Shown: piece by piece, positions 2 through 16,321 of the stretch
Position numbering within the stretch: position 1 is the stretch's first letter
How the letters are laid out: every line of letters begins with the position of its first letter
NCBI GenBank assembly: GCA_963666985.2
Contig: CAXXIA010000002.1
Location: forward strand, 960,001 to 1,024,000
DNA: 64,000 nt
DNA from: Spirochaetia bacterium
Lineage (GTDB): Bacteria; Spirochaetota; Spirochaetia; DSM-2461
Direction of reading: 5' to 3'
Made by a program: the position numbers and the translations under genes
Notes under the pieces: model-generated
Database searches by the model: none
The model's input: only the letters and a program-made list of their open reading frames with translations
What the model was told of the DNA's origin: nothing

Positions 2-964
2 CCGATATATTTTTTCAACCACGATGCCGGTGCGGCCGGCGGTGTTATTCGGGTTGAGGATGGAGGCGGCGGCGGTGTTTGCCGTGGAGGTATGATGTGC
101 GTTGGGGATGGAACCTGTGGAGGTATTTTCGGCGCGGAGTACATCGGCGGGGATGGATTCATCACCGCTTAACTTTCGGATTGCGATGTCCTCGGGGCGG
201 ATGATTGTAACCATGTCCTTGTCTTCTTCAATGATGTTGCCGGTTCCGACAAAGTGAGCCGTGAACAGGGAGTTGGGCTTCTCATAGATTTCTTCGGGCC
301 GGCCTCTCTGCACGATGCGTCCGGCGTCCATGATGATGACTTCATCGGACATGGCGAGAGCTTCGGATTGATCGTGGGTAACGTGAACAACTGTTAGGCC
401 GAGGCTGCGCTGTATCCGGCGGATTTCTTCCTGCATGTCTTCGCGGAGGCGGGCGTCCAGATTCGATAAGGGCTCGTCCAGAAGAAGAAGGTCGGGGTTC
501 ATAATCAGGGCCCGTCCCAGAGCCACCCGCTGACGCTCGCCGCCGCTGAGTTCCCCGGGATACCTCTCCCCTTTTTCTTCCAGACGAATCAGAGAAAGAA
601 TGCGGCGGCGCTCCCTGTAGAGAACATCGGGCCTTTCCCGCTTTACCCAGAGAGGATAGGAAATAATTTTATTAACAGTCATGTGCGGCCAAAGCGCATA
701 ATTCTGAAACACGAAGCCGATGCGGCGCTTTTCCGGGGGAATATCCGTTTTTTCCGAAGAGGAGAATAATATCCGATCTCCGAGTCCGATAATGCCGCTT
801 TCGGGGCGCCGAATCCCGGCGATGCCGGAAAGGAGAGTGCTTTTTCCGCAGCCGCTGGGACCGAGGATGGCCGTTAAGCGGCCGTCCGGAACTTCAAAAG
901 AAACATCATCGACGGCGACATGAGGCCGGTAGGCCATGGTCAGATTTTCAATCGTGAGTCTCAT
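2..964 (-). CDS. ABC transporter ATP-binding protein (PotA/FbpC-like), 3' end runs off window
   Basis: Not in ORF track because no stop occurs in the window. Manual translation from ATG 964 (alternative 970): MRLTIENLTMAYRPHVAVDDVSFEVPDGRLTAILGPSGCGKST (Walker A), LSGGERQRVALGRA signature, LLLLDEPLSNLD Walker B. Confidence 0.92.
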   Translation of the reverse strand, partial: MRLTIENLTMAYRPHVAVDDVSFEVPDGRLTAILGPSGCGKSTLLSGIAGIRRPESGIIGLGDRILFSSSEKTDIPPEKRRIGFVFQNYALWPHMTVNKIISYPLWVKRERPDVLYRERRRILSLIRLEEKGERYPGELSGGERQRVALGRALIMNPDLLLLDEPLSNLDARLREDMQEEIRRIQRSLGLTVVHVTHDQSEALAMSDEVIIMDAGRIVQRGRPEEIYEKPNSLFTAHFVGTGNIIEEDKDMVTIIRPEDIAIRKLSGDESIPADVLRAENTSTGSIPNAHHTSTANTAAASILNPNNTAGRTGIVVEKIYR

Positions 965-966
965 GA

Positions 967-2628
967 TCATCCCCTCCGGGCGGCCGAGGCGTTCCGGGTT
1001 AGTATTCGAGCGACTTTGTTCAGTCCCAGCGTAATAAGGACGATAACCACCGAGAGAGCGGAGGTCATTTCCAAACCGTATGATTGAGACTGCATTCCGA
1101 ACAAGAGAACGCCCAAGGTTTCCTGACCGGTCGAATAAAGCATCAGGGAGATGGGGATTTCCCTTAAGGCGATAAGGAAGCATAAAAGCCAGCCGGATTG
1201 AAGTCCCGGAAGAAGAACCCGGAACGTAACGTCCCGGAAGGCTTGGAATCCGTTTGCTCCGGAAAGACGGGCCATTTGAACCTGAGAAGGCGAGAGCCCC
1301 TTAACCAGACCGGAGACGTTTTTCATTACGATGGGCGTGAATAAAGCGATATAGGTAATGATGATTCCCCAGGATGTTCCGTAAAGCCGGAACGGCACCT
1401 TGTTCCACGCGAGGATGGCTCCCACGGCCAGTACGATATTGGGAAAGGCCATGGGCCAGCCGGCCGCCATTTCCAGCAAACGGGCGCTTTTTCGATTCGT
1501 CCCCTGAGAGAGAAGGACCACCCCGCCGCCGATCAGGCAGGCGGCGGTTGCTCCGACAACCCCGAAGCGAAAACTGTTCCAGAAGGCGCCGACGGACTTG
1601 GGGTTGCGGATAAGGAGCTCCCCATAGTTTCCGAATGTCAGGTATTCGGCCCGCAGGGGCAGCCCCCAACGCTTCAAAAAAGAAGAGACCAGAATAACGG
1701 CCGCGGGAAGAATCGAGGTTGCAGTGAGAAAAACCGCGACGGTCATTATAATGGGGATTTTAACCGATCCGAGGCGCACCCGGTTTCCGCCGGCCGAATG
1801 TGTTCCTTCCGTCTGGTAGGACTTTTTGCCGAGGATTCTCCCTTGAAAAAGAAAAATCGATGCCGAGAGAACGACAAGAAGCAGTGACAACGTCGCGGCC
1901 GTACGTGTATCCAGATTACTTAATGAGGAAAAAATCCGCGTTGTTAAAACCTGTTTTCGAACCGGAAGCGCCAATAGCGCCGGAATGGCGAAATTCGCCA
2001 TCGATCGGGAAAACACAAGAAGAGCGATGGAAAGAATACTCGGCAGGAGAGACGGGAACGTTATCGTCAGTGCCGCTTTCAAAGGCGATGCTCCGCTGAG
2101 AATCGCCGAATCTTCCATCATCGAATCATGTTTTTCCAAAGCGTTTTTCAGAGTCATGAACACAATAGGGTAAAGATGAATGCCGAGAACCAAAGCGGAC
2201 GCGAAAAGGGAATAATAGGGAACATTATAGACGGCCGTACCGAAGAGAGCGGTGAGAATCCTGTGAAGATAACCGTTGCGGCCGAGAAACTGCAGCCAGG
2301 CAAGAGCAAGAATATAAGGAGGAATGACGAACGTCAGAAAACTCAATTTTCCGACAATTCGTCCGCAGGGAAAATCGGTACGGACAACGAGCCATGCCAA
2401 AAATCCGCCTGAAATGAGCGCGAAAGCGGTCGCGCCGAGTGCCACGCGAAATGTATTGAAAACGGCGCGCCAAGTTCCGGAATCCTCAAACGGCTGAAGA
2501 AAACCGCTTATTCCGGCGGAACCCGGCGCGCCCGCAGCACCGAGGCTTTTCAGGAGAATGTTCAGAAAAGGATAGATAACGATAAAGGCGACGGCGGTAC
2601 CCAGGAGCCCCAAAACCCCCGGGTACAT
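967..2628 (-). CDS. Fe3+/thiamine-type ABC transporter permease (fused double domain, FbpB/ThiP-like)
   Basis: About 12 TM segments and two EAA-like loops (EDSAILSGAS, QMARLSGAN). Start trimmed to ATG 2628 (TTG 2640 possible) just past the upstream stop. Confidence 0.88.
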   Translation of the reverse strand: MYPGVLGLLGTAVAFIVIYPFLNILLKSLGAAGAPGSAGISGFLQPFEDSGTWRAVFNTFRVALGATAFALISGGFLAWLVVRTDFPCGRIVGKLSFLTFVIPPYILALAWLQFLGRNGYLHRILTALFGTAVYNVPYYSLFASALVLGIHLYPIVFMTLKNALEKHDSMMEDSAILSGASPLKAALTITFPSLLPSILSIALLVFSRSMANFAIPALLALPVRKQVLTTRIFSSLSNLDTRTAATLSLLLVVLSASIFLFQGRILGKKSYQTEGTHSAGGNRVRLGSVKIPIIMTVAVFLTATSILPAAVILVSSFLKRWGLPLRAEYLTFGNYGELLIRNPKSVGAFWNSFRFGVVGATAACLIGGGVVLLSQGTNRKSARLLEMAAGWPMAFPNIVLAVGAILAWNKVPFRLYGTSWGIIITYIALFTPIVMKNVSGLVKGLSPSQVQMARLSGANGFQAFRDVTFRVLLPGLQSGWLLCFLIALREIPISLMLYSTGQETLGVLLFGMQSQSYGLEMTSALSVVIVLITLGLNKVARILTRNASAARRG

Positions 2629-2632
2629 TGTT

Positions 2633-3679
2633 TTATTCAAAGAGTGCCGCAAAACCTTCGCGGACAGCTTCCTGCCGCTCCGCCAATTCATGCCAATTCA
2701 CGCGATGAATATTCAGATTTTCCGGGATTCCGGGTGTTGCGGACGCCTCTTTCAGAACACTCACAAAACCGAATTGAGACATCAGATTCTGGGCTTTCGG
2801 AGAAATAAGGAAATCGACGAAGGCTTCGGCGACGGCCTGATTCGTCTCGGGCCGACTCTCATTCCGGCTGATGGCAACCGGACGCTGAATCGCGATGGCT
2901 CCTTCGGCGGGCCATGAGATGGCCAAAGGCGTGGGATATCCGTCTTTTTTCGCTTTTTTCTGCAGACGCAGCACCGCATCATGCGGGGCAATACCCGCTT
3001 CAAATTCGCCTTCCTGAATTTTATTCGGAACATCACTGTTCTTTTTCGTTAAGAATAATCCGTTGTCCGCCAGGGCTTTCTGTCCGTCCCAGTTCATTCC
3101 GTTCACATCCCAAAGGCCGCAGACCAGAGCCAGAGCGGTGGAAGACTGCGCCGGATCGGCATGGATGATTCCGCCTGAATATTGTTCATCGGCGAGATCG
3201 GAAAAGGCGCGAGGTACATCGTTTCCGCTCAGAAGATCTTTGTTGTAAATAATCACGCCATAACGTTCACCGACAAGCGTGAAGTTATCATCGGTTTGAT
3301 ACATATCTTTCAGAGCGGCTTCTCCCGCACTCCGGTATTCATCGAGTGCTCCGCGCTCATCCAAAGCAATATAAACAAGAGGATCCGATCCCCAGAAAAC
3401 GTCGGCCTGAATGCCTCCGGATTCCATTTCGGTCCATACGCGCTGTCTTAAGGGACCGCATCCCATTTGTACGAAATCCAGAACATCTCCATGCTCCTCT
3501 TCAAAAACATCTTCCAATTTTTGAAGCATGGCTTCCGGACCCGACAAATAAACGGTAATCCGTCCTTCCTCTCCCGCATAAGCCGCGGGAGATTCATTTC
3601 CTCCCCGAGCGAAAAGTGAAAAGACGGAAAGAAAGGCTAAAACGATGAGAAATAGGACTATTTTTGTTTTTCGAAACAT
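2633..3679 (-). CDS. ABC transporter substrate-binding protein (Fe3+/thiamine/phosphonate class)
   Basis: Signal peptide ending LFARGGNE; ADVFWG and ADPAQSSTA motifs; GGAGA RBS before ATG 3679. Confidence 0.88.
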   Translation of the reverse strand: MFRKTKIVLFLIVLAFLSVFSLFARGGNESPAAYAGEEGRITVYLSGPEAMLQKLEDVFEEEHGDVLDFVQMGCGPLRQRVWTEMESGGIQADVFWGSDPLVYIALDERGALDEYRSAGEAALKDMYQTDDNFTLVGERYGVIIYNKDLLSGNDVPRAFSDLADEQYSGGIIHADPAQSSTALALVCGLWDVNGMNWDGQKALADNGLFLTKKNSDVPNKIQEGEFEAGIAPHDAVLRLQKKAKKDGYPTPLAISWPAEGAIAIQRPVAISRNESRPETNQAVAEAFVDFLISPKAQNLMSQFGFVSVLKEASATPGIPENLNIHRVNWHELAERQEAVREGFAALFE

Positions 3680-3868
3680 AATGTCTCCCATTAAGTTAAT
3701 TTAATATTTTTCTGCTAACTTTATTTTTTAAGACTAATTAATAATGTCAGAAGAAACGATTCTTCGCAATATCTCTTTTCCGCCGCTTTCCGCCGCAGAG
3801 TTAAAAAGAATAACGGTTTTCGGGTGATTCACCCTTGATCGGTAAGCCGAATAGGAATAAACAGAATT

Positions 3869-5152
3869 ATGATTATTACAGGTCAGTTCAATGATTCTCT
3901 TCCGCCGATAATGGACGGCGTCGCGGTTGCGGCACGAAACTATGCCTATTGGCTCAATAAAAATCATGCGCCGAGTTTCGCCATCGGACCGAAAGTTCCC
4001 AAATACACTGATGAAGACGACTTCATTCTCCGATACCGGTCGCTGAAGAATCCTCTAACCGAACCTTACCGACTGGGCGTGCCGCGGGTGGACAGGAGCT
4101 TCAATAAGGCCATCGAATCCATTCCGTTCGATTTGATTCACGCCCATTGCCCTTTTATCAGCGGGAACTACGCGTACACATTGGCCCGGAAAAGGAATAT
4201 TCCTTTGGTCGCCACATTTCATTCCAAATACCGCGATGATTTCGCCAGCAAGATGGCTCTGAACATCACGATCGATCAGGCGGTAAACCTGGTGGTGAGA
4301 TTCTACGAACAGGCCTATGTCGTCTGGGTTCCGAACGAGGCGATTATCGAAACACTCAGGGAATACGGGTATCGGGGCCCCATTGAGTATATGCCCAACG
4401 GATCGGACCTGGAGCCGCCCGAAGGAGCGCAAAAGGAAAAGCTTGAGGAGAAAGGCCGCGCGCTTCTGGGAACATCCGGCGACCTTCCGGTGCTGCTTTT
4501 TGTCGGCCAGCATCGCTGGATTAAAAACTTGAAGAACCTTATCGATTCCCTGGCGGTTGCCAGAGCTCAGGGTTCCAAGTTCGAAATGCGCTTTATCGGA
4601 AACGGCCCGGACGCCGAAGAGATGGAAGAGCGTGTTACGAAACTGGGTTTGGAATCCTGCGTCCGCTTTGTCGGCCCGATTTACGATAGAGAAGATCTCA
4701 AAGCCGTGTACGCGGCCGGGGATTTGCTGACATTTCCATCACTCTACGATAATGCCTCATTGGTAACCCGCGAGGCCGCCGGTTTCGGGATTCCCACTCT
4801 TTTCTCCGAGGGAGCGACGACTGCGGCCGGGATTGTCGACGGCGTCAGCGGTTTTTTGGCAAAAGATTCGCCCGAAGCATACGGCGCTCGGATCTCGGCG
4901 ATTCTTCAAAGTCCCGAGACTCTCCCAAAAGTCGGCGCGGGCGCACGGGAGGTTCTTTACAAACCCTGGGAGAAAGTGGCCGAGAGCGTGTATGTCCGGT
5001 ATCGGGAAATCGTGGAAAAATACAAATGGGAGCAAATCGATAAAGTCAGATCGCGAGAGACCAAGGCGAGACGGCCTTTATCTAAAAAACGTTTGAAGGA
5101 AAAGAACCGGTATGGCGCTTCGGAGATTCCGAAACGCTTTGATGCCGGCTGA
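3869..5152 (+). CDS. GT4 (GT-B) glycosyltransferase, glycolipid glucosyltransferase-like
   Basis: DSLPPIMDGV, DLIHAHCPF, PLVATFHSKY, FPSLYDNASLVTREAA motifs. Confidence 0.88.
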   Translation: MIITGQFNDSLPPIMDGVAVAARNYAYWLNKNHAPSFAIGPKVPKYTDEDDFILRYRSLKNPLTEPYRLGVPRVDRSFNKAIESIPFDLIHAHCPFISGNYAYTLARKRNIPLVATFHSKYRDDFASKMALNITIDQAVNLVVRFYEQAYVVWVPNEAIIETLREYGYRGPIEYMPNGSDLEPPEGAQKEKLEEKGRALLGTSGDLPVLLFVGQHRWIKNLKNLIDSLAVARAQGSKFEMRFIGNGPDAEEMEERVTKLGLESCVRFVGPIYDREDLKAVYAAGDLLTFPSLYDNASLVTREAAGFGIPTLFSEGATTAAGIVDGVSGFLAKDSPEAYGARISAILQSPETLPKVGAGAREVLYKPWEKVAESVYVRYREIVEKYKWEQIDKVRSRETKARRPLSKKRLKEKNRYGASEIPKRFDAG

Positions 5153-5219
5153 TGTCCACCATAGTGTTCTTTGCGGACATGTCCGCAAAGAAACGTTACG
5201 TTTTCACAAGCCTCCGAGC

Positions 5220-6902
5220 TTAGCCGTTCGAGTGTACCCGAGTTACCTTCACGAACACATTGGTGCCGGTTTCATCGGTTTGTACGGCGCTTTTCTGATC
5301 TTCCGGGGCGAGTTTAAGCGTTTCTTCTTCATCCCGATGGTAGATTTCCCAGCCTCCGCCGTAATCCATGAAGTAGCGCGCGAAGTTCCGGCTGTGCACG
5401 TTGGTGTAGATGAACTGACCGCCTACTTTGGTAAGATTTATCATGAAGTCGATGAACTTACGGCAGATGCGGTCCTTGAAGTAGTCGAACATTCCGGCGC
5501 AGTAGGTAAGATCGTAGCTTTGCGGAGCCAGTTCCGGAACCTTGCCGACGAGAATGTTGATGATATTGAAGTTTAAAAGCTCAATTTCGACATTCGGATT
5601 CTGCCAAGGCAGGACTCTTTCGTAGAAATCGGCAAGCGCGTGCGCGTCCTGATCAATCAAGGAAATATGCAGCGGCTTGTCAAACTCGTTTTCACGAAGC
5701 AGTCTGAGAATCTCTTCCGCCGGACCGGAGCCCAGACTCAACACCCGGATGCCGTTCTCGGACGTTTTGTAAGTCTCGACAATCTGATCGTAAAGATAAG
5801 CAATACGATTTACGTGTGCCGTAACGGCTTCAAGAGACATGATGAATCCGTTCATCAGCTTGCCGAAAAGGGAAGCTCCCGTGAAAGGATCGTTAAAGAA
5901 CTGCTTTACCGTCTCGAAATCACCAAGGTAGCCGTGCAGTTTGTCCATAATCGAACTGGACAAAGGAGAACGCCTGATGAACGGCTCAAGTCTGCCGCGA
6001 AGAAGTCGTTTATGAACGGCCACCTGATCCGGCTCGATGAGAGGCGCGAGAGTATTCAGTTTGGAAATGAAGATGCGCATCTGATCGGCGAAGGCGGGAA
6101 AAATCTCTTCAAGGTAGTGGTGCTGGTCTTCGGCACTCAGCAGCAGGCCTTTCGCTTCCTCGCGGCCGAGGACATCCTCAACCATCTCCAGATACATGTG
6201 CCAGTCGAAAATCAGAGCCTTGTACTCGGGCTTGATGCCGGAATACGCATCGAAGACTTTACGCTTTTCTTCGATAATCGCCCCGGTGTACATCGCTTTC
6301 TCGGTAACCGATATGGAACGCAGTTCCAGGAAATTGTCGATGAATTCCACGACGATTTCGGATGACTTTTCCTCGGAACGCAGAATACAGGCTTCTCCAT
6401 CGTAAAGCCGGCGGGGACCGGAACCGATGGCGAGGCGAATCGTATCGCCCACCACGGCGGAAATCGGTTCGGTCAGGTTGAGCCGGGCGGAACGAATATT
6501 GTAATCACCGACCTTCCCGTATCCGATTCGGCCGTCGATGGTCAGACTGACGTCCAGATCGAGCGACGGCTTATGGCGGGGAAGACGAACACGTCCGGTA
6601 ATGGTGTTGTCGAACCGTTTGGATTTAAACGAAACACCGATTCGGTCACGGCGTGCGTCAAAACCGCTTCTGTGCCGAACAACTCCGGCCGCGTGAATAA
6701 TTTCCTGGGCTTCGCCGTTCACAATCGAGATGTCGGGAAGGCCCACGTTCACGCTGAAACGATTGTCATCCTTGTCACAGGCAAAAGAAAATCCGTTCGC
6801 GGAAATCTCCACAACTTCGAATTGAGGCTCCATATCATCCAAAAGACAGTAGGTATCCTCGCGGGTGGTTCTCTGGTTTATTCGCTTGTTTCGTGTTAGC
6901 AT
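5220..6902 (-). CDS. phcB: PhcB-like class I SAM-dependent methyltransferase (3-hydroxy fatty acid methyl ester signal synthase family) with N-terminal PilZ-like domains
   Basis: Colinear PhcB-family motifs as I recall them: K-x2-GY-x-GD(F/Y)E, AH-x-NRI, VLSLGSGPAEE, YDLTYCAGMFDY, TNVHSRN, W-x-IY-x-RDE, TD-x-TG-x-NV. N-terminal RINQR...EISANG and RVRLPR PilZ-like motifs. AGGA RBS before ATG 6902. Confidence 0.75.
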   Translation of the reverse strand: MLTRNKRINQRTTREDTYCLLDDMEPQFEVVEISANGFSFACDKDDNRFSVNVGLPDISIVNGEAQEIIHAAGVVRHRSGFDARRDRIGVSFKSKRFDNTITGRVRLPRHKPSLDLDVSLTIDGRIGYGKVGDYNIRSARLNLTEPISAVVGDTIRLAIGSGPRRLYDGEACILRSEEKSSEIVVEFIDNFLELRSISVTEKAMYTGAIIEEKRKVFDAYSGIKPEYKALIFDWHMYLEMVEDVLGREEAKGLLLSAEDQHHYLEEIFPAFADQMRIFISKLNTLAPLIEPDQVAVHKRLLRGRLEPFIRRSPLSSSIMDKLHGYLGDFETVKQFFNDPFTGASLFGKLMNGFIMSLEAVTAHVNRIAYLYDQIVETYKTSENGIRVLSLGSGPAEEILRLLRENEFDKPLHISLIDQDAHALADFYERVLPWQNPNVEIELLNFNIINILVGKVPELAPQSYDLTYCAGMFDYFKDRICRKFIDFMINLTKVGGQFIYTNVHSRNFARYFMDYGGGWEIYHRDEEETLKLAPEDQKSAVQTDETGTNVFVKVTRVHSNG

Positions 6903-6946
6903 CGTTATTCCTGACCGAAAACTTTTTAATTCAGCATCCATCTGGG

Positions 6947-6974
6947 CAAATTTTGTCCGCATTCCTGCCGATAT
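6947..6974 (+). promoter_or_regulatory. Candidate sigma28 (FliA/SigD) promoter for the hybrid kinase
   Basis: CAAA-N16-GCCGATAT, 24 bp upstream of ATG 6999. Confidence 0.4.
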
Positions 6975-6998
6975 AGAAAATATTACACTGAGAAACCT

Positions 6999-9521
6999 AT
7001 GTTTGGACACACAAAAAAAATAGACTACGAACTCGAAGCGGCGTTTAAAGAAGAAACGCGGGAGAGAATCGCACGGGAAACACGTCGTGGCGTCTTGGCC
7101 ACTTTTTTCATGTACCCGGTCTTCATACCCCTGGACTACCTTGTCTATCCGGATTTGGCACCCACTTTTATGTGGATCAGACTTACGGTCGTCGCTTTAA
7201 GTATCGGCGTACATTTCTTAATGAGACTCCCCTTTCCAGAAAAACACGCACGGCTGTTTGGAATTTTCTCTTATCTCTACTGTACGCTCGCGATCGTGCT
7301 GATGGTTCACCTCGTTGACGGATATGCGAGTCCGTACTACGCCGGAATCAACCTCGTTCTTATTTGCCTACTTTTCATTCTCCCGATGAATGTTAAGGAG
7401 ACAGCTTTTGTCATGGCCGTTGTCTATGCCGCTTACATCGTACCGATCCTCCTTAAAGGAGGGATTGTTGATACCCCTGCTTTCGCGGGCAACAACTTCT
7501 TCCTGATTTCTACAATGCTGCTTGCCATCTTGAGTTCCTATATGGCGACATCAATGAGACGGAAAGAATTTACATCACGATATGAACTTGCGCGAGCAAA
7601 CGAGGAACTCAAAAAACTGGACGTGGTAAAAAGCCAATTCTTCGCAAGCATCAGCCATGAAATCAGAACACCGTTAACATCCATCATGGCGCCGACCGAC
7701 AGCTTGCGCAGAGGTGATGTGGGGCTTCTTTCCACGTCACAGCAATCGCTTATCGACCAAGTGCACAGAAATGCGCTCCGCCTGCTCGATTTGATTAACC
7801 AAATGCTTGATTTCGCCAAATTCGATGCCGGAAAGATGACAATCCGTCTTAAGCGGGTTGATGTGATCAGGCTCATCCGAAACCAAGTGACTCTCTTTCG
7901 CGAAGTCTGCATCCGAAAAGGCCTTACGCTTGAATATGAAGTTTCACAAGAAATACCGATTGTCTTCCTTGATCAGGAAAAGCTGGATCGAATCGTTTCC
8001 AACCTGATTCGCAACGCCATCAAATTCACGGAAGAAGGCGGTATTACAATAAAAATCAGCGCCGAAGAGACGCCCGCTCCCGGATGGATAACGATACAAG
8101 TCCTGGATACCGGAATAGGAATTGCGGCCGATAATCTGGAGAAAATCTTCAATCATTTCCAGCAGGTTGACGGTTCAACGACACGGCGTTACGAAGGAAC
8201 GGGTTTGGGGCTGGCCATTGTCAGGGAATCGGTTGAGCTTCAGCACGGGCGAACCAGTGTGAACAGCGAAGTCGACAAGGGGAGCAGATTCACGGTTCAG
8301 CTTCCCATGAACCTCGATGAACTGGAGCCGGAAGCGGAGATTGACAGACGGGCGGTTGACCGGCGCCGGGAGGAACAAAGCTTCGACGGTAAGGAGAGAA
8401 GAAAAGCTCCCCGCCGTGATGAAGACGGCAAGATTACCATAAGCGATCTTGCGATGCTCGAAACCGAACTGGTTCCGGACGAAGATGTCGTTATTGAAGA
8501 ATTCCCGCAAAGCAGACCGTCCACGGGTATCCGTGTTCTTTATGTTGAAGACAATTCGGATCTGCGGCTTTACATAAGCCGTATGCTCGGCAGTTTCGGT
8601 CACTCGGTTTCTTTGGCCGTCAACGGACTTGACGGCTGGCAGAAAACCCAGGAAATCCTTCCCGATATTATCGTATCCGACGTGATGATGCCCGGAATGA
8701 ACGGGCTGAATCTGGCGCAATTGGTCAAGGCGACGGGTACGACACAAAAAATCCCGATCATCCTGATTACGGCGAAATCGGAAATTGATTCCCGAATTGA
8801 AGGGCTCGAAATCGGCGCCGACGACTATTTGGGCAAACCGATCAATATTCGCGAGCTCGATGCGCGGATCAGAAACATCGTCTCCGAGAGAAGATTCCGC
8901 GACGCCTTGAGTAAAGCCGAAGAAACCGAAGAGAGAATCAACCAATTGGCAATCGGCTTTTCGCGTTCGCTCGAACTGAGAGACGGATACACCGGCGGTC
9001 ATTCCGAAGATGTCCTTAATTTCGGAACAATCATCATCAAGGAACTCGGTATTCCCATGGACCAAACACTTCGTTTGTCTCTACTTATGCACGATATCGG
9101 TAAAATCGGGATTCCCGACAGCATCTTAAGAAAGCCGGCTCCGCTTACATCGCAAGAATGGAAAATCATGCGCAAACACCCGGAAATGGGTGCCGAACTG
9201 CTCAGCCAATTCGACTCACTTTCCGATATGGGCCTGATCATTCTTTCTCATCATGAACGATACGACGGAACCGGATACCCCCAGGGACTCTCGGGAGAAG
9301 ATATTCCGCTGGCGGCACGCATTATTGCCATAGCCGACGCTTGGCACGCAATGAGGGAAGACCGGACCTACCGAAAAGCCATACCTTTGGAGGATGCGGT
9401 AAACGAGCTGATCAGCAATCGAGGACGTCAGTTCGATCCGGTTATCGTTGATAGATTTCTCTGCGGCCTGGTACGGGAAGGTATAGTCCCTGAAAAAATG
9501 ATCAGTAAAACGTTAATATAA
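6999..9521 (+). CDS. PhcS-like multi-TM hybrid histidine kinase fused to REC and HD-GYP phosphodiesterase domains
   Basis: About 6 TM helices with SPYYAGINLV; H-box SHEIRTPL; NAIKFT, DTGIGI, GTGLGL; REC (VED, SDVMMP, TAK, KP); HD-GYP (HDIGK, HHERYDGTGYP, ADAWHAM, RTYR). Confidence 0.92.
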   Translation: MFGHTKKIDYELEAAFKEETRERIARETRRGVLATFFMYPVFIPLDYLVYPDLAPTFMWIRLTVVALSIGVHFLMRLPFPEKHARLFGIFSYLYCTLAIVLMVHLVDGYASPYYAGINLVLICLLFILPMNVKETAFVMAVVYAAYIVPILLKGGIVDTPAFAGNNFFLISTMLLAILSSYMATSMRRKEFTSRYELARANEELKKLDVVKSQFFASISHEIRTPLTSIMAPTDSLRRGDVGLLSTSQQSLIDQVHRNALRLLDLINQMLDFAKFDAGKMTIRLKRVDVIRLIRNQVTLFREVCIRKGLTLEYEVSQEIPIVFLDQEKLDRIVSNLIRNAIKFTEEGGITIKISAEETPAPGWITIQVLDTGIGIAADNLEKIFNHFQQVDGSTTRRYEGTGLGLAIVRESVELQHGRTSVNSEVDKGSRFTVQLPMNLDELEPEAEIDRRAVDRRREEQSFDGKERRKAPRRDEDGKITISDLAMLETELVPDEDVVIEEFPQSRPSTGIRVLYVEDNSDLRLYISRMLGSFGHSVSLAVNGLDGWQKTQEILPDIIVSDVMMPGMNGLNLAQLVKATGTTQKIPIILITAKSEIDSRIEGLEIGADDYLGKPINIRELDARIRNIVSERRFRDALSKAEETEERINQLAIGFSRSLELRDGYTGGHSEDVLNFGTIIIKELGIPMDQTLRLSLLMHDIGKIGIPDSILRKPAPLTSQEWKIMRKHPEMGAELLSQFDSLSDMGLIILSHHERYDGTGYPQGLSGEDIPLAARIIAIADAWHAMREDRTYRKAIPLEDAVNELISNRGRQFDPVIVDRFLCGLVREGIVPEKMISKTLI

Positions 9522-9600: not shown

Positions 9601-11085
9601 CTATTCCATAGAGCCTTTCCCGGTAACGGAAGGTAAATAGACGGTGAATACGGAGCCTCGGCCCGTTTCGCTTTCCACTTCAATCCGTCCGCCGCAGAGG
9701 TCGATAATCTTTTTGACGATTGAAAGGCCCAAACCCAGACCCTTTCCGGAGCTATGCCTCGCTCCCTTGAAATATTTATCATATATTTTTGATATTTCCC
9801 CGTAAGGAATCCCATCCCCCGTATCGGAAACGGCGACTAACACTGATTCCCCGAATTGAGCAAGTTTCACCGATATCAGGCCTTTTTCCGGTGTATATCT
9901 GGCGGCATTGGCCAAAAGATTAATCCAAACCTGCTGAATAATATCCCGATTTCCATAATACATAACCGACGAGAGTTCCGACACGATTCTCAGATTCTTT
10001 TTCCGAATCTCCGGTTCCAGCATGATAATGCACTCCCGAAGCTGCTCGTCCAGTGAAAACGACGACTTACCGCTTAGCCACTGCTGTGATTCCAGTTTCG
10101 CCAAAAGCAGCGTGTTTCCGGCAAGATCCGACAGCCGCTGGGACTCGGATGCGATGATTTCAAGATACCGAATCTGCTCCTCCCTGGAATATTCCTCTTC
10201 CAGCATCAGGTTGGCGAATCCATTGATGGACATAATGGGTGTTCTGAATTCATGAGAAAACTGCCTGACGAAATCATCCCTGAGAGTCTTGATACCCCGA
10301 AGTTCCCGGCACATCCTGTTGAAAGTTTCAAAAATTTCCCGAAAAGGACCGGCTTCATCTTCATTAAGGGCGATGTTGAAGTCACCGGCGGCTATGCGGG
10401 AAATACCTCCCACCAGCATTGTGAAATAACGATTGGATCGCTTCAGAAAAAAGTAAATGAAACATCCAAAAACCAGCGCCATTGGAAAAATCATGCCGAC
10501 CGCGCCGACCGGATCGTAAGACTGTAAGCCGACAACCTTATAGGCAAAGAATTCCACCAGGGCGAAAACGCAGACCGAAGCGATTACCAGCACAACGGAA
10601 AGGAGAATCAGTCTTCTCCTCAGCCGCTGAGTGGTGCTTGGAATCCTCTCCGATTTTCCGCCGAACAGGATGGAATCGCCGTTATCAACTTTGATGACTC
10701 CGGAACCGGGACGAACCGAACCAAGACGCCGGCACATTCTGTTGAAATCACTGTAAATATCCCGGAAAGGTCCCTTTCCTTTGGGATTCAGTTCAACATT
10801 ATAGTCCCCTTCGGAGACACGGCGGATTCCCTTAAGCAGTTCGGAGACGGTTCCGTCCACTTGCCGGAGTCCCTTCCGGGTAATCACACCCAAAAGGATG
10901 CCCATGGGACCGATCATGCCGATACAGTCGATGGGATCGTACAGAGTCCGGCTGTCGAGGATTTCATAGACGAAAAACTCAACAAGGGCAAAGGAACAAA
11001 CGGAACAGACGACAATCATTACGGAGACCAATACAAGGTGACGTCTGACGGGTTTTATCGCCGAAGGAACCGTCGGTTTCTTCAC
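9601..11085 (-). CDS. HAMP sensor histidine kinase (HssS-like) with duplicated TM-TM-HAMP input module
   Basis: SHEFRTP H-box, NAARYT, DTGDGI, GLGLGLSI; two clearly homologous TM-HAMP repeats. Confidence 0.9.
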   Translation of the reverse strand: MKKPTVPSAIKPVRRHLVLVSVMIVVCSVCSFALVEFFVYEILDSRTLYDPIDCIGMIGPMGILLGVITRKGLRQVDGTVSELLKGIRRVSEGDYNVELNPKGKGPFRDIYSDFNRMCRRLGSVRPGSGVIKVDNGDSILFGGKSERIPSTTQRLRRRLILLSVVLVIASVCVFALVEFFAYKVVGLQSYDPVGAVGMIFPMALVFGCFIYFFLKRSNRYFTMLVGGISRIAAGDFNIALNEDEAGPFREIFETFNRMCRELRGIKTLRDDFVRQFSHEFRTPIMSINGFANLMLEEEYSREEQIRYLEIIASESQRLSDLAGNTLLLAKLESQQWLSGKSSFSLDEQLRECIIMLEPEIRKKNLRIVSELSSVMYYGNRDIIQQVWINLLANAARYTPEKGLISVKLAQFGESVLVAVSDTGDGIPYGEISKIYDKYFKGARHSSGKGLGLGLSIVKKIIDLCGGRIEVESETGRGSVFTVYLPSVTGKGSME

Positions 11086-11756
11086 CGGGCGCGGACCTCC
11101 GCCTTGTACCCCACACCTCTGACGGCGACTATGGAAATCTCATCCATATCCCGGAGCCGTCCTCTCAGGCGGCTGATATGGGTTTTAACCGTTTCCTCTC
11201 CGCTTTCCGAGCCGTCGCCCCAAACAGTGCTGAAAAGCTGATTTTTAGTAAAGATTCGTCCCGGTTCCGAGAGCAGCTTGGCCAAAAGGTCCGATTCTTT
11301 CTTCGGCAGAATATGGACCTCCCCGTCTTTCCTCAGTTCACAAGAGGTAAGATCCAGAACCGCGTCTCCTATGCTGATTTCCTGCCGGTCCTGTATCCGC
11401 GCCCTCCTGAGAAGTGCTTTTACCCGCCAGAGGAGCTCCTCTTTATTGAACGGTTTGGTAAGAAAGTCATCGGTTCCGCTGGAAAAACCGCTGCGCTTGG
11501 TATCGAAAGACTGATCGGCGGTAAGCATCAGTACCGGGATTGTCAAACCTTCTTCCCGAAGGGTTTTTACAAGAAGCAATCCGTCGATTCCCGGCATCAT
11601 GATGTCGGTTATAAGGAGGTCCACGGGATTCGCATCAAGAAAATCCTGGGCTTCCGCGCCGTCCCTTGCGGCCAGAACGGCATAATCCTTCCCAAGCTGC
11701 CGTTCCAGAAGCAGCCGCAAATTGTCGTCGTCCTCAGCAATCAGAAGGGTGGCCAC
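11082..11756 (-). CDS. OmpR-family response regulator (HssR-like)
   Basis: AEDD, DIMMP, GTDDFLTKPF, winged-helix end VRGVGYK; 4-bp overlap with the kinase. Confidence 0.93.
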   Translation of the reverse strand: MATLLIAEDDDNLRLLLERQLGKDYAVLAARDGAEAQDFLDANPVDLLITDIMMPGIDGLLLVKTLREEGLTIPVLMLTADQSFDTKRSGFSSGTDDFLTKPFNKEELLWRVKALLRRARIQDRQEISIGDAVLDLTSCELRKDGEVHILPKKESDLLAKLLSEPGRIFTKNQLFSTVWGDGSESGEETVKTHISRLRGRLRDMDEISIVAVRGVGYKAEVRAR

Positions 11757-11801: not shown

Positions 11802-12665
11802 TCAAGAGGCCTTACGATTTCGGAGTATTTTCAGATTTTCGGGACGGAGAAAGGCACTTTTATGATTTTTAATCATAACCTTACCGATCATACCGACAGC
11901 CTGACGGGGAAAAAGGCGATAAAGGAAATCCATAGCCTTCGAATCGCTGCCGATCAGCACCTTCGCTTTCTCTTTCATCACGCTTTTAAGAATTACGGCC
12001 GCGGCTTTTTCCGGTGAAGTAAGGGACATTCCGGCGGACTTTTTCTCTTCTTCAAGAGACCGAGATTCTTCTAATCCGGAGTTCTTTTTAATGTCGGTTT
12101 CTATGGCTCCGGGGAAAACCGCCGAAACACCGATCCCGACTCCCGCAAGTTCCTGCCTAAGAGCCTCCGTGGCGATTTTTACCGCCGCCTTTGAAGCTCC
12201 GTAGGCTCCCTGTCCGGCTACGGGGAGAAATCCGCCCATGCTCGATACATTGGAAATCCAGCCGCCGCCGTTATCCGCCAAAGAGGGAATGAACGCCCGG
12301 GCCATATTCAGCATTCCAAAGAAATTAATTTCAAAAAGCCGCCTGATAATCTGATCGTCAAGCTCATATATCGGAATAAACGGCTGAATGATTCCGGCAT
12401 TGTTAATCAGAACATCGATTCCGCCGAATCTCCTGATGATTTCATCCGGCAGTTTTAGAACTTTCTCATTGTCCGTAATGTCCGCGACATGAATCGATAA
12501 CCTGGTACGTTCGTTTCCCGCGGCCCGTACCGTTTCTTCCAGGGAACGAGGATTCAAGTCCACAGCGGCTACCATCGCTCCCATTTCGAGAGCCTGTATT
12601 ACAAGCTGTCTTCCAACGCCGCCGCCGGCTCCCGTAATAACAATGACTTTGTTTTCCAGTTTCAT
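11802..12665 (-). CDS. SDR family oxidoreductase
   Basis: TGAGGGVG, NNAG, YGASK motifs. Confidence 0.93.
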   Translation of the reverse strand: MKLENKVIVITGAGGGVGRQLVIQALEMGAMVAAVDLNPRSLEETVRAAGNERTRLSIHVADITDNEKVLKLPDEIIRRFGGIDVLINNAGIIQPFIPIYELDDQIIRRLFEINFFGMLNMARAFIPSLADNGGGWISNVSSMGGFLPVAGQGAYGASKAAVKIATEALRQELAGVGIGVSAVFPGAIETDIKKNSGLEESRSLEEEKKSAGMSLTSPEKAAAVILKSVMKEKAKVLIGSDSKAMDFLYRLFPRQAVGMIGKVMIKNHKSAFLRPENLKILRNRKAS

Positions 12666-12728
12666 ATTGGCTCCTTCGTAACATTTCGTCTGTTTCTTAT
12701 CTGTTTCACTCAGAACATACGAAGGAGA

Positions 12729-12746
12729 GGTAACATGAAAGTAAAC
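12729..12746 (-). promoter_or_regulatory. Candidate OmpR-type direct-repeat binding site upstream of the SDR-RR-HK operon
   Basis: Minus strand GTTTAC-tttca-TGTTAC (11-bp period), followed by a -10-like TATGTT. Confidence 0.4.
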
Positions 12747-12841
12747 TCCGGGAAAAAGCTCTCAACGGCGGCTATTTGATCGGATGAATTTTTCTTTTCA
12801 TCCGGTTCAATTTAGGCTGAAAATCAGCTGTTATTAAGGTT

Positions 12842-12876
12842 CTTTAAGCCGGGGATGATACCTTACCGGCTTAAAG
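12842..12876. terminator. Stem-loop downstream of glmS and the repeat array
   Basis: CTTTAAGCCGG ... CCGGCTTAAAG, 11-bp perfect arms. Confidence 0.55.
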
Positions 12877-12917
12877 TTTGAGTTCACCAGAAGCACCGCC
12901 GACGCACGAAACTCGGC

Positions 12918-13326
12918 TTACTCCACCGTCGCTGGTGCGGCGGTGTTCACTCGCTTAGGCCATGCCAAAATCCCTACGGGATTTAGTCGCGGCCCTCGAT
13001 AGCTGTGCTTTGTCTTTCGTCGGTTCGGAAATGCGCAAGCACAGCTTGTGCACTCCTCTCGCCTTCCTCGGCCATCACTCCACCGTCGCTGGTGCGGCGG
13101 TGTTCGCTCGCTTAGGCCATGCCCAAATCTCTACGGGATTTAGTCGCGGCCCTCGATAGCTGTGCTTTGTCTTTCGTCGGTTCGGAAATGCGCAAGCACA
13201 GCTTGTGCACTCCACTCGCCTTCCTCGGCCATCACTCCACCGTCGCTGGATCAGGCGGTGTTCACTCGCTCGGCCATGCCCAAATCTCTACGGGATTTAG
13301 TCGCGGCCCTCGCTCACTCCACCGTC
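12918..13326. repeat. Tandem array of about 2.5 copies of a 157-bp hairpin-rich unit, each delimited by the last 13 nt of glmS
   Basis: Core T(C/T)ACTCCACCGTC at 12918, 13075, 13232 and 13314; near-identical units; internal inverted repeats AAATCCC-TAC-GGGATTT and AGCTGTGCTT...AAGCACAGCT. Confidence 0.95.
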
Positions 13327-15137
13327 ACCGATTTTGCCAAATTCCTCGGCTGATCCACGTCCCGTCCCAGTTCCAAGGCGCAGTAATAGGCAAAAAGCTG
13401 GAGGGGAACGACCATCAGGAACGGATAAAACTTCTCGGCGATTCGGGGAATAAAGATGGCATCGTCGGCTATGGAGGCGGCTTCATCGTCGCCTTCAACG
13501 CACAAAGCGATTACAGGGCCTTTCCTGGCCTTGATTTCCTTCATATTGGAGATGACCTTCTCCCGAAGATGATCATCGGGCACCAGGAACATACTCGGCG
13601 TCTGTTCGTTGATGAGCGCGATGGGGCCGTGTTTGATTTCCGCGGCGCTGTAGCCTTCCGAATGAATGTAGGCGATTTCCTTAAGTTTTAAGGCGCCTTC
13701 CATCGCAACCGGATAATTGATGCCTCGTCCGAGGAAGAGGAAATCCTCGGCTTTGTAATACTTCTCTGCCAGTTTGCGGATGCTGTTTTCCTTCTCCAGG
13801 ATTTTCGCGATGGCTTGCGGAACGGATTTCAGCCCTTCGATAAAATCCTGCCCCTCGGGCCAGGCCATATGACGCATTCGAGCCATCTTCAATATAAAAA
13901 GATAAAGAGCCGCAACTTGACTTGTAAAGGCTTTGGTCGAGGCCACGGCGATCTCAGGCCCCGAATGGATATAGACGCCGCCGTCGGTTTCACGGGCGAT
14001 GGTGGATCCGACAACGTTGCAGATACCCAAAACCCGGGCACCCTTGCGCTTCAGCTCGCGAATAGCCATCAGCGTATCCAGAGTCTCACCGGATTGAGAG
14101 ACGGCAAAATAAAGCGTTCCCTCTTCAACAAGGGGATTCCGGTAGCGCAGCTCCGAAGCGAGTTCGGTTACGGCGGGAATGCGGGCCAGTGATTCCAGAA
14201 GATAGGCGGCCACGCATCCGGCATAGAAACTGGTTCCGGCGGCGATAATCACGACACGCTTCACTCCGAGAAGCTCCCGCTCGCTCATGTTCAAACCGCC
14301 GAGAACGGCCGTGGCCTGAACTTCATCAAAACGGCCGCTCATGGCTCGGGGAATGGAATCCGTCTGCTCATGGATTTCCTTGAGCATGTAATGGGGGTAA
14401 TCCCCTTTTTCCATCTCCTCGAGTTCCCAGGAGATGTTGTCCACGGTTTTATCCACGGGACGATTGCGCATGTCGGTTACTTGATAATCATGATGATCCA
14501 GACGAACGACTTCGCCGTCTTCGAAGTACACAACCTGCTTTGTATGGGCAATCATGGCGCTCACGTCGCTGGCAATGAACATTTCCCCGTCGCCGATGCC
14601 CAAAACCATGGGTGATCCGTTCCGTGCTCCGATGATTTCATCCGGATGATCGGCATGCATGACAAGGATTCCGTAGGTGCCCTTCAAAAGTGAAATGGCC
14701 TTCTGGACGGCGGCCAGCAAATCGCCCGAATAAAATGATTCGACCAGATGCGCGATGACTTCCGAATCGGTATCGGTGGCGAATTCATGGCCGTCGCCGA
14801 CAAGACGTTCCTTCAAACCGGTGTAATTCTCGATGATGCCGTTATGACAGATGGCAATTTTACCGCTGCAGTCGGTATGAGGATGAGCATTGATGTCGTT
14901 CACGCCGCCGTGGGTTGCCCAGCGCGTATGGCCGATACCCCAGTTGCCGGGAACATCCTTGGGAACAACGGCTTCAAGAGCATTGATTTTGCCTTCCTTT
15001 TTATACAAGAGAAGACGGCGCTCGGACCCGATGCTGATGCCGGCGGAATCATAACCTCGATATTCAAGCCTCTTCAAACCGGCCAGTAATACATCCGCGG
15101 CGCGACGGGGTCCGCAATATCCGATAATTCCGCACAT
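13314..15137 (-). CDS. glmS: Glutamine--fructose-6-phosphate aminotransferase
   Basis: Starts MCGIIG (GAGGAGG RBS); LEYRGYDSAG, GHTRWATHG, SQSGET; ends PRNLAKSVTVE. Confidence 0.99.
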   Translation of the reverse strand: MCGIIGYCGPRRAADVLLAGLKRLEYRGYDSAGISIGSERRLLLYKKEGKINALEAVVPKDVPGNWGIGHTRWATHGGVNDINAHPHTDCSGKIAICHNGIIENYTGLKERLVGDGHEFATDTDSEVIAHLVESFYSGDLLAAVQKAISLLKGTYGILVMHADHPDEIIGARNGSPMVLGIGDGEMFIASDVSAMIAHTKQVVYFEDGEVVRLDHHDYQVTDMRNRPVDKTVDNISWELEEMEKGDYPHYMLKEIHEQTDSIPRAMSGRFDEVQATAVLGGLNMSERELLGVKRVVIIAAGTSFYAGCVAAYLLESLARIPAVTELASELRYRNPLVEEGTLYFAVSQSGETLDTLMAIRELKRKGARVLGICNVVGSTIARETDGGVYIHSGPEIAVASTKAFTSQVAALYLFILKMARMRHMAWPEGQDFIEGLKSVPQAIAKILEKENSIRKLAEKYYKAEDFLFLGRGINYPVAMEGALKLKEIAYIHSEGYSAAEIKHGPIALINEQTPSMFLVPDDHLREKVISNMKEIKARKGPVIALCVEGDDEAASIADDAIFIPRIAEKFYPFLMVVPLQLFAYYCALELGRDVDQPRNLAKSVTVE

Positions 15138-15187
15138 ATTTTCAATCCTCCTCAAGGAAAACAAAACCGCAATTGGTAATAGGGAGC

Positions 15188-16321
15188 ATGGATATAACGA
15201 ATTATATCGCACCCATACCATCCATCCTAAGGCGGCAATCAGGCAAGAGTAAGGCCATTGCGGCATTCTTTATTTATTTTCGGTTATCCCTTTCCGTCTT
15301 TCCCGTTTCGGCGGCCGCGACAGTACTGTTTTTCTCGGCAGGATGCGCCCCCGGATCAGGCTCCGGTTCCGGCGGACCGCCTTTCACTGCGGACCTTCTT
15401 CCGCCGATACTCCTCTCCGCCGAGGTAACGGATGAACGAAGTCTTCACTTTGGATTCGATGAAGAAATAACGATCCATGGCGCATCATCCGTTATCAGCG
15501 ACAGTCTGCCCGTGGAATCGGCCCTTGCCGAGGAAAATCATCTGGAAATCCGATTCGCCGAGGACCAGGGAATCGGCCGCTCGTATATTCTTCGGGCTGA
15601 AGTGGAGGATGCAAAAGGGAACAGTCTCTCGTTCCTTTATGAGTTCAGCGGATGGAATCCGCGGGTGCCGGATCTGCTGATTAACGAACTGAATCCAAGA
15701 GGATCGGCAAGCACGCCGGACTGCATCGAACTCTACGCATTAAGCGATGGGAACCTCGGGGGACTTGTTGTTCTGATAGGAACTCCGGGAAATCATTCCG
15801 GTTCGATAACCCTTCCGGCCGTTGAGATTGCCGAAGGGGATTTTATCTTGGTTCATCCGAAATCCGAGGGTCTCCCGGAAGAAGTGGACGAAACAGACCT
15901 ACCGGATGCTTCCGGCGGGAAACTCGCCTCCGATACGGCTTGGGATTTCTGGATGCCCGGATCTCCGGGATTGCCGGGCAACAATGGAGCGGTCACCCTT
16001 CTTGCACGAAATGGCGGCAGAATCATCGACGCGGTGCTTTGGTCCGACAGGGAAGACGATCCGGACGCGGAAAATCTCGGATGGACTTCCGCGGGTTTTG
16101 ATTTCGCATCGGATCTCGGATCTTCAGGCTGCTGGAAAGCCGAGAGCGGCGGAACACCCAAGCCGTCGGATGCGGTCAGCGTGTCGTCTTCCACGGCTAC
16201 GCGGTCCTTGTGCCGCGCCTCAAATCCGGAAGACACCGATTCACGGAACGACTGGCACACCGTGCCCACAAGCCGGCGGACATTCGGGGCTCCGAACGAC
16301 GATGCGGTTTATACTCCCTAG
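15188..16321 (+). CDS. Putative lipoprotein with lamin-tail-domain-like region
   Basis: Hydrophobic stretch ending FSAGC; LLINELNPRG...DCIELY resembles the LTD motif; start uncertain. Confidence 0.6.
   Translation: MDITNYIAPIPSILRRQSGKSKAIAAFFIYFRLSLSVFPVSAAATVLFFSAGCAPGSGSGSGGPPFTADLLPPILLSAEVTDERSLHFGFDEEITIHGASSVISDSLPVESALAEENHLEIRFAEDQGIGRSYILRAEVEDAKGNSLSFLYEFSGWNPRVPDLLINELNPRGSASTPDCIELYALSDGNLGGLVVLIGTPGNHSGSITLPAVEIAEGDFILVHPKSEGLPEEVDETDLPDASGGKLASDTAWDFWMPGSPGLPGNNGAVTLLARNGGRIIDAVLWSDREDDPDAENLGWTSAGFDFASDLGSSGCWKAESGGTPKPSDAVSVSSSTATRSLCRASNPEDTDSRNDWHTVPTSRRTFGAPNDDAVYTP

Follow-up and report, generated by a model that had tools for sequence, protein, structure and literature searches.

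A PhcB-like methyltransferase with tandem PilZ domains beside a MASE8 hybrid kinase in a spirochaete: a candidate Phc-like signalling pair linked to c-di-GMP

Two divergent genes of a Spirochaetia bacterium (assembly GCA_963666985.2, contig CAXXIA010000002.1) encode a putative S-adenosylmethionine (SAM) methyltransferase related to PhcB and a hybrid sensor kinase with a PhcS-type MASE8 membrane sensor. The window, which is the whole stretch of 64,000 nucleotides analysed here, covers positions 960,001-1,024,000 of the forward strand of that contig, and all coordinates given below refer to it. A first-pass annotation had described these genes as lying 96 bp apart and had proposed that they form a quorum-sensing circuit of the Phc type wired to cyclic di-GMP (c-di-GMP). 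The gene layout is as described there (Table 1). The open reading frame (ORF) of the methyltransferase had been listed as 5220-7010 on the reverse strand with a GTG start, but we prefer the ATG at 6902 since it aligns with the starts of the orthologues (MLTRNKRINQR versus MITQNLRINQR). The methyltransferase gene is present as a single copy in its own genome, and the kinase is the sole MASE8 protein encoded there. In the orthologous loci the intergenic region measures 94-130 bp, and a comparison of these regions by eye revealed no obvious common motif.

Table 1. Coordinates of the gene pair and of the predicted domains in the 64,000-nucleotide window
Feature	Position	Strand	Remarks
PhcB-like SAM methyltransferase, tandem-PilZ long form, 560 residues	5220..6902	(-)	
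PilZ domain 1, residues ~1-100	6603..6902	(-)	RINQR (R7, R11) and EISANG (S34, G37)
PilZ domain 2, residues ~104-190	6333..6593	(-)	non-canonical motifs RLPR, DYNIRSAR
Helical region, residues ~194-380	5763..6323	(-)	GYLGDFE and AHVNRI; aligns with short PhcB-like proteins
Class I SAM methyltransferase fold, residues ~385-554	5241..5750	(-)	LSLGSGPAEE and YCAGMFDY; small-molecule methyltransferase matches, Z 15-21
Divergent intergenic region, 96 bp	6903..6998	.	between methyltransferase and kinase genes
Hybrid sensor kinase MASE8-HisKA-HATPase_c-REC-HD-GYP, 840 residues	6999..9521	(+)	
MASE8 membrane sensor domain, residues 1-200	6999..7598	(+)	PhcS type
Histidine kinase core, HisKA 211-278 and HATPase_c 325-437	7629..8309	(+)	SHEIRTPL; Pfam
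Conserved Arg-rich linker, residues ~445-480	8331..8438	(+)	between HATPase_c and REC
Receiver domain, residues 513-625	8535..8873	(+)	acidic pocket ED, acceptor Asp in SDVMMPG, T and K present (read from sequence); Response_reg E 7.7e-24
HD-GYP domain, residues 657-815	8967..9443	(+)	HDIGK and HHERYDGTGYP; Pfam HD_5/HD, HD_5 E 3.5e-37

Sequence comparison shows that both proteins are genuinely related, though distantly (23-28% identity), to the PhcB- and PhcS-type proteins of the Burkholderiaceae, as the first-pass annotation had supposed from motifs. A tblastn search of plasmids gave four records and revealed, on pPHS1_P of Paraburkholderia graminis, a gene for a 468-residue methyltransferase followed by one for a 445-residue kinase and by two response regulators. 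The window methyltransferase aligned with the former (26% identity over 438 residues, E 7e-41) and the window kinase with the latter (E 3e-24). That the P. graminis kinase is of the PhcS type is indicated by its own relatives: NCBI and the Joint Genome Institute (JGI) give the name PhcS to those at 88-89% identity, Cupriavidus proteins at 62-67% identity include a "sensor histidine kinase, repressor of PhcA", and a 442-residue Ralstonia insidiosa protein is 63% identical. PF20968 (MASE8) was found on all 120 PhcS-type relatives listed for it. The window kinase also matched the R. insidiosa PhcS-type protein (P0256; 23% identity over 453 residues, E 9e-22) and the C. taiwanensis "sensor histidine kinase, repressor of PhcA" (E 2e-17). 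These alignments begin at residue 11-15 of the window kinase and span the entire PhcS-type length, sensor and kinase core together. When the N-terminal 200 residues were compared alone with nine named PhcS-type proteins, they gave 22-28% identity over 147-193 residues and 36-52 bits, against a maximum of 22.7 bits in 100 shuffles.

Database names and short motifs point the same way. Seven of 50 methyltransferase homologues, one of them 67% identical, carry the JGI label [quoted passage not shown], which we take to be the KEGG name of phcB. All seven methyltransferase motifs picked out in the first pass are present, and they have counterparts in identical order in the Paraburkholderia PhcB-type protein. 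The sensor motif singled out at the same time, SPYYAGINLV in the window kinase, aligns with SLYYAGLNLA of Ralstonia insidiosa and SPYYVGLNLA of Cupriavidus. No Ralstonia sequence was found among the best 80 of 485 methyltransferase relatives in species genomes.

Pfam returned weak methyltransferase matches only for the window enzyme, including Methyltransf_31; no NCBIfam family matched it, and a PDB sequence search with the single sequence or with a profile gave no match. The AlphaFold model (16 homologues; predicted local distance difference test, pLDDT, 85.7) predicts two beta-barrels at residues 18-98 and 117-187, a helical region at 194-380 and a Rossmann methyltransferase domain at 385-554. 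In a fold search the nearest structures were small-molecule and natural-product methyltransferases with a helical lid, namely 3ocj (Z 20.7), TmtA (18.1) and SgvM (17.6). The 3ocj match (root-mean-square deviation 3.0 over 249 aligned residues, model residues 223-557) partly covers the helical region. The two proteins are alike in helical lid and methyltransferase fold, whereas their identity is 16% and 3ocj has no PilZ domain. As a separate observation, 3ocj is an unannotated protein of Bordetella parapertussis and, among solved structures, comes nearest in fold to the body formed by the helical region and the methyltransferase domain (next match 18.1); it may be related to the PhcB family without having been recognised as such.

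The N-terminal motifs, which the first pass had called PilZ-like, belong to PilZ domains proper. Judging from sequence and modelled structure, the enzyme carries two of them in tandem, the first with a near-canonical binding signature and the second non-canonical, since the fold of domain 2 matches PilZ structures, Pfam recognises PilZ in relatives, and R7, R11, S34 and G37 are invariant across 16 homologues, down to 34% identity. The consensus binding motifs of PilZ domains are RxxxR and (D/N)xSxxG. Domain 1 has RxxxR in the form RINQR, and its second motif, EISANG, has Glu at the consensus Asp/Asn position; domain 2 is without an SxxG motif. Pfam PilZ scored above cut-off on domain 1 in four homologues (P0024, P0031, P0032 and P0043) and on domain 2 in P0029, P0035, P0039 and the 67%-identical orthologue. 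When residues 1-195 were modelled separately (3 sequences, pLDDT 54 overall), domain 1 came out poorly and only domain 2 was searchable; barrel 1 in the full-length model has a pLDDT of 79-91. The top 13 matches to domain 2 (model residues 106-195) were all PilZ domains with Z 8.1-11.1, and they include BcsA, PA0012, MrkH, YcgR, Alg44 and PlzA.

The kinase proved to be the multi-transmembrane protein with REC and HD-GYP domains that had been announced. Residues 31-186 form about six hydrophobic segments by hydropathy, and MASE8 matched residues 46-197 with 24.8 bits in the protein scan (cut-off 26.2) and with 29.4 bits, above cut-off, in the genome search; PF20968 (MASE8) is also the precomputed assignment for this protein. 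The signature motifs of the H-box, REC and HD-GYP domains are intact as read from the sequence. The Arg-rich linker follows the pattern [DE]RR..DRR.....F.G.[DE]RR...RR.[DE]D, which contains RxxxR and recurs in 12 members of the family as well as in a version of the kinase with a 7TMR-DISM sensor. An NCBIfam model for NosR-family REC c-di-GMP phosphodiesterases matched the kinase with E 1.3e-47, which is below the cut-off of that model. A receiver with its acceptor Asp is followed by an HD-GYP domain with HD and HHExxDGxGYP, the order and motifs of RpfG-type proteins, so that the kinase is a predicted phosphodiesterase. RpfG-type REC-HD-GYP proteins are c-di-GMP hydrolases whose activity depends on phosphorylation (bioRxiv 10.1101/2021.11.05.467447). 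Since the whole genome has 35 GGDEF, 17 HD_5 and 5 Pfam-detectable PilZ matches, its c-di-GMP network is large and the machinery needed by the loop proposed below exists there.

The first-pass annotation had suggested a survey of the gene pair, and this survey revealed conservation at two levels. For the wider family we collected 190 PhcB-like loci, comprising 80 from species genomes (the best 80 of 485 relatives from a pattern-limited scan), 29 from a sample of the spirochaete phylum, 80 from metagenomes and one orthologue, leaving out the duplicates L081 and L111, the own-genome locus L193 and the plasmid locus L194. Six-frame ORFs of these loci were searched with the first 200 residues of the kinase. 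A MASE8-type sensor gene was found near the enzyme in 160 of the 190 loci, across many phyla, and within 300 bp in 159 of them. It lies directly downstream on the same strand in 120 loci, adjacent and convergent in 38, adjacent and divergent in one, and 634 bp away in one. Another 29 loci had no MASE8-like ORF (five of these offered less than 600 bp of room), and one locus had no match to the enzyme ORF. The 162 partner ORFs are of several kinds: MASE8-kinase-REC-kinase-like (56), MASE8-kinase (56), MASE8-kinase-REC (11), MASE8 with another tail (25), with HD-GYP (1) and cut short (13). By Pfam, the other tails were SpoIIE/PP2C in six of the six spirochaete-phylum loci scanned and a nucleotide cyclase in L067, from another phylum. 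Only two of the 190 loci (L192 and L112) contain an HD-GYP ORF, both of them with tandem-PilZ enzymes, and none of the 188 short forms has one beside it. Among the metagenome matches listed there was one long-form locus, L112.

At the level of orthologues, the divergent adjacent kinase is present in four of four loci, which have 56-67% enzyme identity and represent three GTDB families within the class. Three of the four show HD-GYP, and the fourth locus ends at a contig edge. Enzyme and kinase diverge in identical rank order across these loci. Among the listed homologues of the two proteins, eleven pairs of an enzyme and a kinase agree in the length of the longest contig (for example 20823, 37499, 6019, 6911, 14179, 32739 and 5935), which is circumstantial evidence only. 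The methyltransferase orthologue was found in two of 38 genomes of the order and in five of 401 sampled genomes of the class, and no flanking gene was common among the five loci compared (the window and the four orthologous loci). Since its occurrence is patchy, the divergent arrangement is kept in all four loci and the flanks all differ, the pair behaves as a patchily distributed two-gene cassette. At these five loci no DNA-binding regulator or other conserved gene accompanies the pair, which bears out the earlier remark that a regulator like PhcA is no part of it.

Directly downstream of the hybrid kinase, at 9601-11756 on the reverse strand, lie an ordinary HAMP histidine kinase and an OmpR-type regulator, which are probably unrelated to the pair because they are missing beside the orthologous pairs. 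The stretches 2-5152 and 11802-15266 encode an ABC importer (ATPase, permease and binding protein), a GT4 glycosyltransferase, a short-chain dehydrogenase and GlmS, and none of these genes is kept next to the pair in other genomes. A 154-residue ORF at 5112-5576 on the forward strand, overlapping the end of the methyltransferase gene, matched no family and was treated as spurious.

We propose, giving the idea about an even chance of being right, that the two genes make up a Phc-like circuit of synthase and sensor, complete in itself and linked both ways with c-di-GMP. The methyltransferase would transfer a methyl group from SAM to a small acid, probably a lipid-like one, and by analogy with PhcB the product would be a diffusible methyl ester. 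With its six-helix MASE8 domain the adjacent kinase would then read this product, or a membrane change caused by it, and would autophosphorylate and pass the phosphate to its own receiver domain. As in RpfG, the receiver is expected to switch the HD-GYP phosphodiesterase to which it is fused, and perception would thereby alter c-di-GMP. Finally, the tandem PilZ domains of the enzyme may read c-di-GMP and gate signal synthesis, closing the loop. We infer the product, the ligand, the sign of every step and the binding of c-di-GMP. This circuit is favoured because of the homology to the Phc proteins, the family-wide link between enzyme and MASE8, the exact pair in all four orthologous loci, the co-occurrence of PilZ with HD-GYP, the intact motifs, the c-di-GMP network of the genome and the precedent of hydrolysis by RpfG-type proteins.

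Several results weigh against such a circuit, and the two-gene scheme of the first-pass annotation, which gains from the homology, the conserved pair, the PilZ domains and the motifs, is weakened by two of them in particular. One concerns kinases without an enzyme. A related MASE8 domain was present in 33 of the same 401 class genomes, and the 30 loci that were fetched comprise the window and its four orthologues with the enzyme, 24 loci without it and one short-form pair. Thus 24 (L217-L240) of 29 related MASE8-HK-REC-HD-GYP kinases of the class have no methyltransferase in their flanks, for which up to 1.5 kb was checked, less in some. Furthermore, whole-genome searches found no PhcB-like gene anywhere in eight of ten solo-kinase genomes (91-98% complete); in the other two, the PhcB-like matches with a known neighbour were short forms beside a second MASE8 protein only. 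From these counts it appears that the majority of this receptor's relatives function without a signal made by the cell itself, and they look like solo receptors. The other result is the metagenome locus L112 (344-5443), where a tandem-PilZ enzyme with 38% identity lies 6 bp behind a kinase in which 7TMR-DISMED2 and 7TMR-DISM_7TM replace MASE8. The HK-REC-HD-GYP core of that kinase is as in the window kinase (36% identity overall, E 2e-157, Arg-rich linker included), and it is therefore the enzyme and the kinase core, not the enzyme and MASE8, that are conserved at L112. Further points concern single lines of evidence. Pfam PilZ was not significant on the window methyltransferase itself, and hhalign of the methyltransferase family with one PilZ protein of the same genome gave E 0.14 and 0.22, not significant, with the register correct. 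The Phc comparisons were made with Burkholderiaceae PhcB- and PhcS-type proteins, a set to which PhcB of R. solanacearum itself did not belong, and at the low identity to them the product may differ. Kinship among many of the 190 loci (about 45 come from Rhizomicrobium-like genomes, for instance) means that the counts over them overstate independence. Lastly, no acyl-supplying gene, exporter or counterpart of PhcR, PhcQ or PhcA was linked to the pair at the five loci.

These observations lend themselves to a different arrangement of the same parts, in which the enzyme is the output of the kinase and not the source of its input. MASE8 would sense something else, for instance a cue from lipids or the membrane or a signal made by other organisms, the kinase would lower c-di-GMP locally, and the PilZ-gated methyltransferase would alter a lipid or metabolite that the cell need not sense itself. 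The majority of solo kinases, the exchanged sensor at L112 and the restriction of HD-GYP to the tandem-PilZ form of the enzyme all suit this arrangement. However, across the family the enzyme is tied to MASE8 whatever the output, be it a kinase, a kinase-REC-kinase-like protein, PP2C or a cyclase, which fits better with a relation of product and receptor, and in Ralstonia the PhcS pathway has as its ligand the methyl ester that PhcB makes (PMC7694676). We regard this arrangement as the main rival, although as rather unlikely. A methyltransferase that acts on protein, for example on the kinase itself in a CheR-like adaptation without any small molecule, would account for the persistent adjacency of enzyme and sensor, and Pfam CheR SAM-binding matches were seen in two relatives (E 0.0011 and 0.0016). 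These matches are weak and far below the cut-off, the nearest structures are the lidded small-molecule enzymes named above, and the characterised member of the family, PhcB, makes a methyl ester (PMC7694676), so that methylation of protein seems very improbable. That the genes are chance neighbours, or merely have a promoter region in common, might be argued from their divergent orientation, which precludes a single operon, and from the lack of any other linked gene in the window. This idea is close to refuted by the adjacency in 160 of 190 loci and the four of four divergent pairs amid unrelated flanks, and the matching rank order of divergence of the two proteins also speaks against it; we give it hardly any chance.

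A broader and more tentative picture can also be drawn, which we think is probably too generous. The pair might be a portable autoinducer cassette that unites quorum-type signalling and c-di-GMP in one loop and moves between spirochaete lineages, while in other phyla the sensor of the receptor would be exchanged and the enzyme and kinase core stay together, as if different chemical dialects were in use; the many receptor-only relatives might listen to their neighbours. The parts of a Phc synthase and receptor occur here in a spirochaete in minimal form, with a predicted output and a presumed feedback that are easy to assay. Two proteins would suffice to test for diffusible methyl esters from PhcB-like enzymes outside the Burkholderiales, for ligands of MASE8 and for the way in which cell-to-cell signalling is coupled with c-di-GMP. 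The wide spread of enzyme and MASE8, with 485 relatives in a pattern-limited scan and the linkage in most loci surveyed, suggests a large and unstudied class of signalling systems.

In the literature covered, to which subscription journals did not belong, we found no account of PhcB in spirochaetes or Leptospira or of a PilZ-SAM methyltransferase with c-di-GMP, nor, judging by the listings of papers, of a PhcB-PilZ fusion or a PhcS protein with HD-GYP. MASE8 appeared in one relevant preprint, which does no more than name the domain (bioRxiv 10.1101/2021.11.05.467447). The earlier statement that no such system has been described in spirochaetes agrees with this, but the rarity it implied was overstated: short PhcB-like methyltransferases of about 465 residues are present in 53 of 401 sampled genomes of the phylum, usually beside a MASE8-PP2C protein. 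These pairs, and the fused PhcS-PhcR-like kinases with their enzymes in other phyla, are like the window pair in enzyme family and sensor domain. They differ in that their outputs are PP2C, kinase-REC-kinase-like, plain kinase or cyclase and never HD-GYP, and in that their enzymes have at most one N-terminal barrel.

Phc signalling itself is known experimentally only from Ralstonia and Cupriavidus, where its link to downstream regulation is still unclear (PMC7694676). In C. metallidurans the phcBSRQ genes lie on chromosome 1 (PMC2864759). Compared with phcBSRQ, whose signals are methyl 3-hydroxymyristate or methyl 3-hydroxypalmitate, the window pair has the enzyme body and motif order in common with the Burkholderiaceae PhcB-type protein, its kinase has the PhcS-type MASE8 sensor with the HisKA/HATPase_c core directly after it, and in both systems the enzyme and sensor genes are neighbours. 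In contrast, the genes in the window are divergent and form no operon, and at the five loci there are no separate PhcR or PhcQ genes, that is, neither a REC-kinase-like gene nor one for a second response regulator. PhcS is a stand-alone protein of about 440 residues that works with separate regulators, whereas the window kinase, nearly twice as long, has REC and HD-GYP fused to it. Likewise the window enzyme has two N-terminal PilZ domains, and the Paraburkholderia enzyme has one short N-terminal region without RxxxR or SxxG. The host in the present case is a spirochaete.

In its proposed logic the pair also resembles the Rpf system of Xanthomonas (RpfF, RpfC and RpfG), which responds to the diffusible signal factor (DSF), since a lipid-type signal would act through a hybrid kinase and a receiver on an HD-GYP phosphodiesterase. 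JGI indeed names homologues of the kinase [quoted passage not shown]. The parts are different, however. The putative synthase is a methyltransferase where RpfF is a crotonase, the sensor is MASE8 in place of the RpfC membrane domain, and kinase and REC-HD-GYP are joined in a single polypeptide. Feedback in the Rpf system is exerted by the binding of RpfC to RpfF, while in the pair described here it would go through PilZ and c-di-GMP.

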